NCBI GenBank assembly: GCA_045105515.1
Contig: JBGCDR010000035.1
Location: 413 to 64,412, forward strand
Length of the DNA stretch: 64,000 bases
Source: Oligoflexales bacterium
Lineage (GTDB): Bacteria > Bdellovibrionota_B > Oligoflexia > Oligoflexales > Bog-1112
Direction: 5' to 3'
Part shown: positions 14,479 through 15,506 of the stretch, piece by piece
Position numbering within the stretch: position 1 is the stretch's first letter
Layout of the letters: every line of letters starts with the position of its first letter
Notes under the pieces: generated by a model
What the model was told of the DNA's origin: nothing
The model's database searches: none
What the model saw: the letters and a program-made list of their open reading frames with translations, nothing else
Made by a program: the position numbers and the translations under genes

Positions 14479-15506
14479 TCAACTAGCTTTACCGGGGTTT
14501 GCGTCCCCTTGCTTATCATTACTAAAGTCATAGGATTTCACGATGTTTCTACCAGCACTTTTTGCTTCATAAAGAGCCTTATCAGCCGAAGCAATTAGCT
14601 CACTTGAACTGACTTGCATACCGGGGTTGAAAGTGGCAATACCTTGGCTGACAGTTACCAAATTGCTAGCCTTTGAAGAATCATGGCCAATATTTGCTCT
14701 CTTGATAGCATTTGCAAGCTTCTTGGCAATAAATTCTGCGCCTGCTCGATCAGTGTCAGGAAGGACTGCAGCAAACTCCTCACCACCATACCTAGCGATC
14801 AGATCAGATCAGAAGGCCTTCGTAAACACAAGGAAATACACTGAGCAATACTTTTCAAGCACTCATCTCCCGCTTGGTGGCCGTAAGAATCGTTGTACAA
14901 TTTAAAATAGTCAATATCGATAAGAATAAGCGATAGACTAAACGCATTGCGGACGCTTAAACGCAGCTCTTGATCCAAAGATTGATCAAAACACCTTCTG
15001 TTAGGAACACCTGTCAAACTATCGATCAATGACAAACGATTAAGTACAGTATTGAGATCTGAAAGTTGCCGAGTAACCTCTAACAATTCCCGTTCTCGTG
15101 ACTTTCTTCTATCAATTTCGTGTTTCATCTTCAAAGCTGATCTAACACGAGTTAAAAGCTCAAAATTTCGTATCGGTTTCATAATGAAATCAGAGGCTCC
15201 ATAGGCAAAAGCCATCTGGAAAGTTTCTTGTGAATTATTTTCGGAAAGAATGATCACAGGAACTTCGTTGTATAAAGGAGACTCTTTGATCATCTTACAC
15301 TGCTTTATTGACTCCCTATCAGAAGAAATATCGAGTAAGACAAGATCAGTTGCTGGAGCCTTAGGCGAACTCTTACCACCTAAATTTAAAACTTTAGAAA
15401 TCTTTTCAGCATCATAACACCAAGTAAGGTCACTATACCCACCGTTATGAAGGATAGTTTCTATTTCTTTAACTTCTAACTTTGGAATGCAAACAAATAT
15501 ACCCAT
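14479..15506 (-). pseudogene. Receiver (REC) - GGDEF diguanylate cyclase, frameshifted
   Basis: ORF 15506-14799 encodes REC (LVLLDISS, DFIMKP) plus the first half of GGDEF and ends ..RRPSDLI*. A second frame is open from 14808 and reads SDLIARYGGEEFAAVLPDTD...ALYEAKSAGRNIV through to 14479. Removing one ATCAG unit joins them as RRPSDLIARYGGEEF, with an RxxD I-site and an intact GGEEF A-site. Confidence 0.85.
14798..14812. repeat. (ATCAG)x3 pentanucleotide tandem repeat at the GGDEF frameshift point
   Basis: Read directly: g-atcag-atcag-atcag-aagg on the plus strand. Two units would keep the gene in frame. Confidence 0.9.

Follow-up and report, generated by a model that had tools for sequence, protein, structure and literature searches.

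The REC-GGDEF gene described here, a WspR-like diguanylate cyclase of an uncultured Oligoflexales bacterium, most probably carries a genuine and evolutionarily very recent 5-bp slippage duplication that turned it into a null allele, and not an evolved or conserved switch (we place the probability of this reading at about 0.78). The gene lies in a window of 64,000 nt (the whole stretch of DNA that was analysed) from contig C35 of genome G000, and four features of the window carry the argument:

14479-15506, minus strand: frameshifted REC-stalk-GGDEF gene (WspR-like diguanylate cyclase), whole, ~340 codons on read-through
14799-15506, minus strand: frame as encoded, 235 aa, with REC, coiled-coil stalk and the first half of GGDEF including RxxD, without GGEEF
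14479-14808, minus strand: continuation of the GGDEF domain, -1 frame, 109 aa plus stop (SDLIARYGGEEF...GRN...)
14797-14813, unstranded: pentanucleotide tract, which on the coding strand reads (CTGAT)x3 with partial units at its flanks (Tandem Repeats Finder)

A cyclase gene split across two reading frames

As encoded, the 235-aa ORF ends in ...CLRRPSDLI followed by a TGA at 14801-14799 (minus strand), and the frame that closes with the TGA at 14481-14479 reads SDLIARYGGEEFAAVLPDTD...ADKALYEAKSAGRN...KAS, with ALYEAKSAGRN inside it. This second frame is -1 relative to the first and is still without stops across the 109 codons past the break. Pfam splits the GGDEF domain between the two (the 235-aa ORF matches profile positions 2-75, the -1 frame 73-160 with 69.2 bits), and no single frame of the gene as encoded holds a complete GGDEF (PF00990). 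When read through minus one repeat unit, the same DNA gives one GGDEF match over positions 2-160 of 161 (168.8 bits), plus REC. A sequence-only reading of the locus had described a REC-GGDEF gene cut off at RRPSDLI with its domain resuming in another frame, on which ORFs and Pfam matches agree, and had placed the junction at (ATCAG)x3 (14798-14812, the plus-strand reading of the tract), with two units giving an intact protein and an RxxD five residues before GGEEF. The read-through bears this out: it contains R230-P-S-D233, LIARY and GGEEF, identical in the intact relatives P0001 and P0002, and its RxxD inhibitory site, at that distance from GGEEF, aligns with the RSSD of WspR.

More broadly, the DNA keeps the catalytic motif (GGEEF) and the residues for substrate or metal (DIDYFKLYND, LYEAKSAGRN), all as in intact relatives, and the translated 235-aa product is without GGEEF and the C-terminal GGDEF residues. 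GG[D/E]EF is the known active-site motif for c-di-GMP synthesis, and with this loop and everything beyond it lost, the product of the three-unit allele is predicted to be unable to make c-di-GMP. An internal restart for the C-terminal half was considered and rejected, since the -1 frame has no usable start codon ahead of GGEEF (its sole start is a TTG 60 codons from the end) and the half would thus not be made separately. That the three-unit sequence still yields a full-length enzyme, through a programmed -1 frameshift of the ribosome or a nonstandard genetic code, is virtually inconceivable: the downstream frame is indeed -1 and remains open, but no X XXY YYZ slippery heptamer occurs in the 10-nt window between the -1-frame TGA and the 0-frame TGA, the intact relatives require no shift, and reading TGA as sense leads into non-homologous sequence, so that both forms of recoding were rejected from the sequence. 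Besides this cyclase, G000 holds ~21 other GGDEF loci.

The repeat tract and the age of the break

The tract has a period of 5 and 3.4 copies over 17 nt with 100% matches, and spans codons S232-D233-L234-I235 plus the stop, with one unit in surplus relative to every intact relative. Within the window ATCAGx3 occurs once, against 0.01 expected, and pentanucleotide tracts of at least three units (any unit) number 22 in the 6.29 Mb genome, or ~1-2x the Markov expectation. What matters is that the extra unit coincides exactly with the frame break, rather than the repeat as such.

The intact orthologues P0001, P0002 and P0003 (89%, 83% and 80% identity) read TCC GAT TTG ATA, TCT GAC TTA ATT and TCA GAC CTC ACC at this site, respectively, and G001, the only other species of the genus in the genome collection compared, reads TCT AAT TTA ATT. 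None of the five intact or otherwise-broken relatives (80-89% amino acid identity) has a perfect CTGAT repeat there, and all are in frame at the site. With other codons in the relatives and the repeat in none, the tract is specific to the window's lineage. The G001 orthologue also stands apart in its I-site, reading RRPSNLIARYGGEEF (L002:236-250), in which the Asp is replaced by Asn (RxxN), unlike all other close relatives.

Evolutionarily, the comparison with the closest intact relative, P0001, gives a dN of 0.064 and a dS of ~2 (omega ~0.03). As synonymous sites are saturated against all relatives, dN/dS is useless as a clock, and lineage-specific replacements were counted instead with the help of outgroups. 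They come to 8 in the window's lineage, each of them conservative and outside the motifs, and to 7 in P0001. The low omega, the replacement counts and the 109 codons still open past the break reveal no accumulation of relaxed constraint, which argues that the frameshift is very recent. Of the explanations proposed from the sequence alone, a recent inactivating duplication is therefore the one that holds: the repeat is lineage-specific, the gene has no other decay, and the same allele is found in independent assemblies (see below). The comparison of orthologues that had been proposed as a check points the same way, as no orthologue has the three-unit tract and no additional decay is seen in the window's gene.

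The most likely route to this allele would begin with synonymous changes, in the window's lineage alone, that produced TCT GAT CTG ATC for Ser-Asp-Leu-Ile. The resulting 12-nt period-5 tract, T-CTGAT-CTGAT-C (~2.4 units), would have been the substrate on which replication slippage added one 5-bp unit. The surplus unit shifts the frame into a TGA straight after Ile235. Loss of one unit could restore the gene at mutation-hotspot rates, as at lacI (CTGG)3. That the tract falls at the I-site follows from GAT-CTG-ATC being the codons used there for Asp-Leu-Ile, and need not be regulatory design. A transposon footprint, in the form of a 5-bp target duplication, would leave an identical sequence, but is the less economical explanation, because a period-5 repeat was already in place and a transposon is superfluous.

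An allele shared by independent assemblies

G000 is MAG-like, with 6.29 Mb in 461 contigs, 90.9% completeness and 4.8% contamination. The same-genus genome has 4.6 Mb and those of the family's other genera 1.8-4.0 Mb, and the G000 bin may include extra material.

The truncated 235-aa product (P0005) is encoded on three contigs, one from the MAG and two from the Logan per-run assemblies of SRR29999183 and SRR29999185. Both Logan contigs have three units, and their alignments to the window (6708 and 4345 nt) show 100% identity. An assembly or sequencing artefact, with a true organism that has two units and an intact gene, had been among the explanations offered from the sequence, and a fragmented MAG of 461 contigs with 4.8% contamination would be a plausible place for one. 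However, the Logan assemblies, which come from a different assembler, return the same three-unit sequence twice, and short-read errors do not typically take the form of a 5-nt insertion in a complex, non-homopolymer context. With two libraries and two assemblers giving the same allele, an assembly artefact is effectively excluded, and an artefact of any kind retains next to no credibility. At 100% identity the three assemblies stand for a single clone, probably sampled in one study, and assemblies drop minor variants; the fixation of the three-unit allele therefore applies to that population only.

Kind of cyclase and gene neighbourhood

Among solved structures, the best matches are to WspR (3i5a, E 6e-58; 3bre, E 8e-56; over residues 67-321), and in the WspR alignment RSSDLAARYGGEEF stands opposite RPSDLIARYGGEEF. 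The receiver (PF00072; window 15150-15506, minus strand) scores 39.6 bits against a cut-off of 30.2, over residues 14-122 and profile positions 13-111, and retains the acceptor Asp59, the Ser and Lys110. Its phosphorylation pocket is incomplete, as the acidic pair is replaced (IFVC-IPK vs. ILIVDDS in canonical homologues), the loop after the acceptor Asp is shortened and the MPxxDG segment is absent. These peculiarities are common to the orthologues P0001, P0007 and P0040 (identity range 48-89%), which suggests that the receiver of the whole clade is atypical and possibly phosphorylation-independent.

Three neighbours, all on the same strand as the cyclase, define its genomic setting:

15685-16776, minus strand: mannose-1-phosphate guanylyltransferase-like gene (manC-like), upstream neighbour (Pfam and conserved synteny)
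13501-14349, minus strand: DUF2760 membrane protein, downstream neighbour and first gene of a DUF2760/Hsp70/Hsp70 module (PF10816, 140.8 bits)
11533-13395, minus strand: Hsp70-like ATPase of the DUF2760/Hsp70/Hsp70 module (PF00012, 64.4 bits)

In P0001-P0003 the gene order is SSF transporter, TatD, AdoMet decarboxylase, two hypotheticals, manC-like, REC-GGDEF, DUF2760, Hsp70 and Hsp70/DUF3731, and the conserved synteny of the manC-like neighbour supports the orthology of the locus. The window, P0001-P0003 and P0007 (59% identical) all have the cyclase directly upstream of DUF2760/Hsp70/Hsp70. In G006 (48% identical) cyclase and module are separated by a small RRM gene of opposite orientation, and the homologues in G028 (56%) and G026 (46%) are unlinked to the module. 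The claim that the cyclase heads a DUF2760/Hsp70 cluster was thus correct, the order being conserved in the family; judging from these gene orders, the linkage is a family-level synteny and does not extend beyond the family. No wspABCDEF-type operon adjoins the cyclase at any of the seven syntenic loci (neighbours manC-like, DUF2760, Hsp70), and the protein is WspR-like by architecture, not a member of a Wsp operon. The 129 nt from the cyclase stop to DUF2760 contain no terminator-like site, and a polar effect of the frameshift on the module is conceivable. A literature search for DUF2760 together with Hsp70 found no paper.

Evidence for and against a switch

The exact two-unit product is absent among ~15 billion public proteins, the best full-length match being 89% identical. 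Exact-pattern scans (variable gap, any unit number) gave no matches in genome and metagenome contig collections in which this species is represented by nothing but the window's own records, which were left out.

Within G000, 2570 simple repeats (homopolymers of at least 8, dinucleotides of at least 5 units, and 4-, 5-, 7- and 8-nt units repeated at least three times) were screened for tracts where a change of one unit, up or down, fuses two long ORFs. The cyclase tract is the sole 4-, 5- or 8-nt repeat of the 2570 to do so. About 30 homopolymers also came up as fusion candidates; of the seven looked at, most proved to be ordinary gene boundaries at which the downstream ORF carries a signal peptide of its own or is a tandem paralogue, and the class was not counted as frameshifts. 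The same pentanucleotide recurs as (GATCA)x5 at C351:3033-3057 (= L032:1372-1396), between a MutS2-like gene, whose terminator hairpin it closely follows, and an AAA ATPase gene ~105 nt downstream; a Logan contig on record from three samples has the same five units.

Two further repeats of G000 deserve mention in their own right. A (TGGGGGG)x3.3 tract lies within a long ORF at C284:7057-7079, where with one unit fewer an upstream 437-aa frame would run on into a downstream one of 143 aa (junction ...WGVGGGG / GGWGVGGENSG...), so that G000 may contain another frameshift linked to a repeat. The longest pentanucleotide microsatellite is (GACAA)x12 at C62:500-560, which is apparently non-coding and lies ~180 nt upstream of a 268-aa, secreted-looking ORF.

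A reversible slipped-strand switch, ON with two units and OFF with three, which would give heterogeneous c-di-GMP input, possibly to the DUF2760/Hsp70 module, had also been proposed from the sequence. The tract is perfect, and one unit more or less alters the frame; the gene is otherwise pristine, which is compatible with frequent reversion; three-unit repeats like lacI (CTGG)3 are measurable hotspots; and the gene neighbourhood is conserved. Yet known pentanucleotide switches, such as opa CTCTT, have many more units than the 3.4 (17 nt) found here, and the repeat is missing from all relatives and is thus not a conserved feature. Only the OFF allele is seen, both in the three assemblies of the one clone, where minor alleles would be hidden, and against ~15 billion proteins, and the five-unit tract with this motif does not vary between three samples. 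In addition, the genome holds no repertoire of such loci, the cyclase tract being a singleton. A tract of three units without conservation, without a repertoire and, in the three assemblies, without polymorphism argues against an evolved contingency locus, and the proposal of an ON/OFF switch at this gene is, in our view, highly improbable.

A second break in the genus

On contig C132 the G001 orthologue stops with ...SQGIAR*, 70 nt short of the contig end, and the remainder of the gene, followed by DUF2760, is found at the end of contig C109 (L023:2634-2708); the two halves are set in the same gene order as described above. The 72-nt sequence at the end of C132 (L002:1-72) occurs at at least 41 contig ends of G001 (336 first-look candidates) and nowhere in G000. 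The two ends of the element, of each of which the contig ends contain just ~70 nt, form inverted repeats (GGTAACTCCAAATAAAT..., 26 of 28 nt matching) flanked by a duplicated CAA, and the gene joined without the element is full-length. As far as these ends allow the element to be classed, the G001 orthologue is split after ...SQGIA by an IS-like element, and 4 contigs, of several sources, encode the truncated product. The number of contig ends involved indicates a massive IS expansion in this sister species.

Two independent breaks suggest that the cyclase is dispensable in the genus. One could go further and suppose that its loss was selected rather than neutral, inactivation being advantageous in a genus with at least two independent knock-outs; the independent IS-like insertion with its CAA target duplication and the strong constraint on the gene in other lineages both speak for this. 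We nonetheless consider it unlikely: with the IS end at at least 41 contig ends of G001, a chance hit in a dispensable 1-kb gene has a probability of a few percent, three other close lineages are intact, and ~21 other GGDEF loci in G000 make redundancy or neutral loss a sufficient explanation. As the IS is so abundant in G001, the second break speaks for dispensability more than for selection. It is distinctly unlikely, too, that both breaks belong to a recurrent, selected (or low-rate reversible) silencing of c-di-GMP input to a chaperone-like DUF2760/two-Hsp70 machine, achieved by slippage in one species and by an IS in the other, with sister lineages under strong purifying selection. The reading we prefer for the window's gene stays that of a recent slippage duplication.

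Implications and comparison with known systems

Taken as a recent slippage duplication, the locus is a clean natural example of a frameshift newly inactivating one of ~22 GGDEF genes, and is ordinary in kind. For annotation, it is better recorded as a frameshifted pseudogene or null allele than as a 235-aa "diguanylate cyclase". That the sister species is broken too would mean that the cyclase is dispensable, or its loss favoured, in the genus. Natural ON genotypes (the relatives) and OFF genotypes (this strain and G001) therefore exist for testing c-di-GMP control of DUF2760/Hsp70/Hsp70.

Compared with WspR of P. aeruginosa and P. syringae (3bre, 3i5a), the cyclase has the same order of REC, coiled-coil stalk and GGDEF, and the same RxxD I-site five residues ahead of GGEEF. 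It differs in that it has no adjoining wsp chemosensory operon but manC-like and DUF2760/Hsp70 neighbours, in that its receiver lacks, clade-wide, the N-terminal acidic pair and MPxxDG, and in that the gene is frameshifted in this genome.

With the CTCTT tracts of Neisseria opa and the poly-C tract of Bordetella bvgS (refs 6 and 7 in PMC8115180) the locus shares a frameshift set by the number of units, and these examples include both a pentanucleotide unit and a signalling gene. The opa and bvgS tracts are long, are kept from strain to strain and differ visibly in length, whereas the tract here, of three units, is confined to its lineage and shows no variation in the available data.

Within c-di-GMP signalling, a parallel is offered by awsX and mwsR of Pseudomonas fluorescens SBW25, where direct repeats of 6-8 bp drive recurrent indels (PMC6324874). 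In both cases short direct repeats lie inside genes of the c-di-GMP network, and there they give rise to recurrent loss-of-function alleles (PMC6324874). In SBW25 the alleles are deletions that keep the frame, were selected in the laboratory and raise c-di-GMP (PMC6324874); the one described here is a frameshifting duplication in a cyclase, which should lower output.

The closest analogue is the (CTGG)3 hotspot of lacI in E. coli, which gains or loses one unit by slippage (Farabaugh et al. 1978, as summarised in PMC12606429). The present allele departs from it in its starting point of ~2.4 units before mutation, its 5-nt unit and its origin as a natural allele in an uncultured bacterium. What the two have in common is a short perfect repeat, with a unit not divisible by three, inside an ordinary gene that is inactivated when a unit is added; the change could in principle be reversed, and neither locus is read as an evolved switch.
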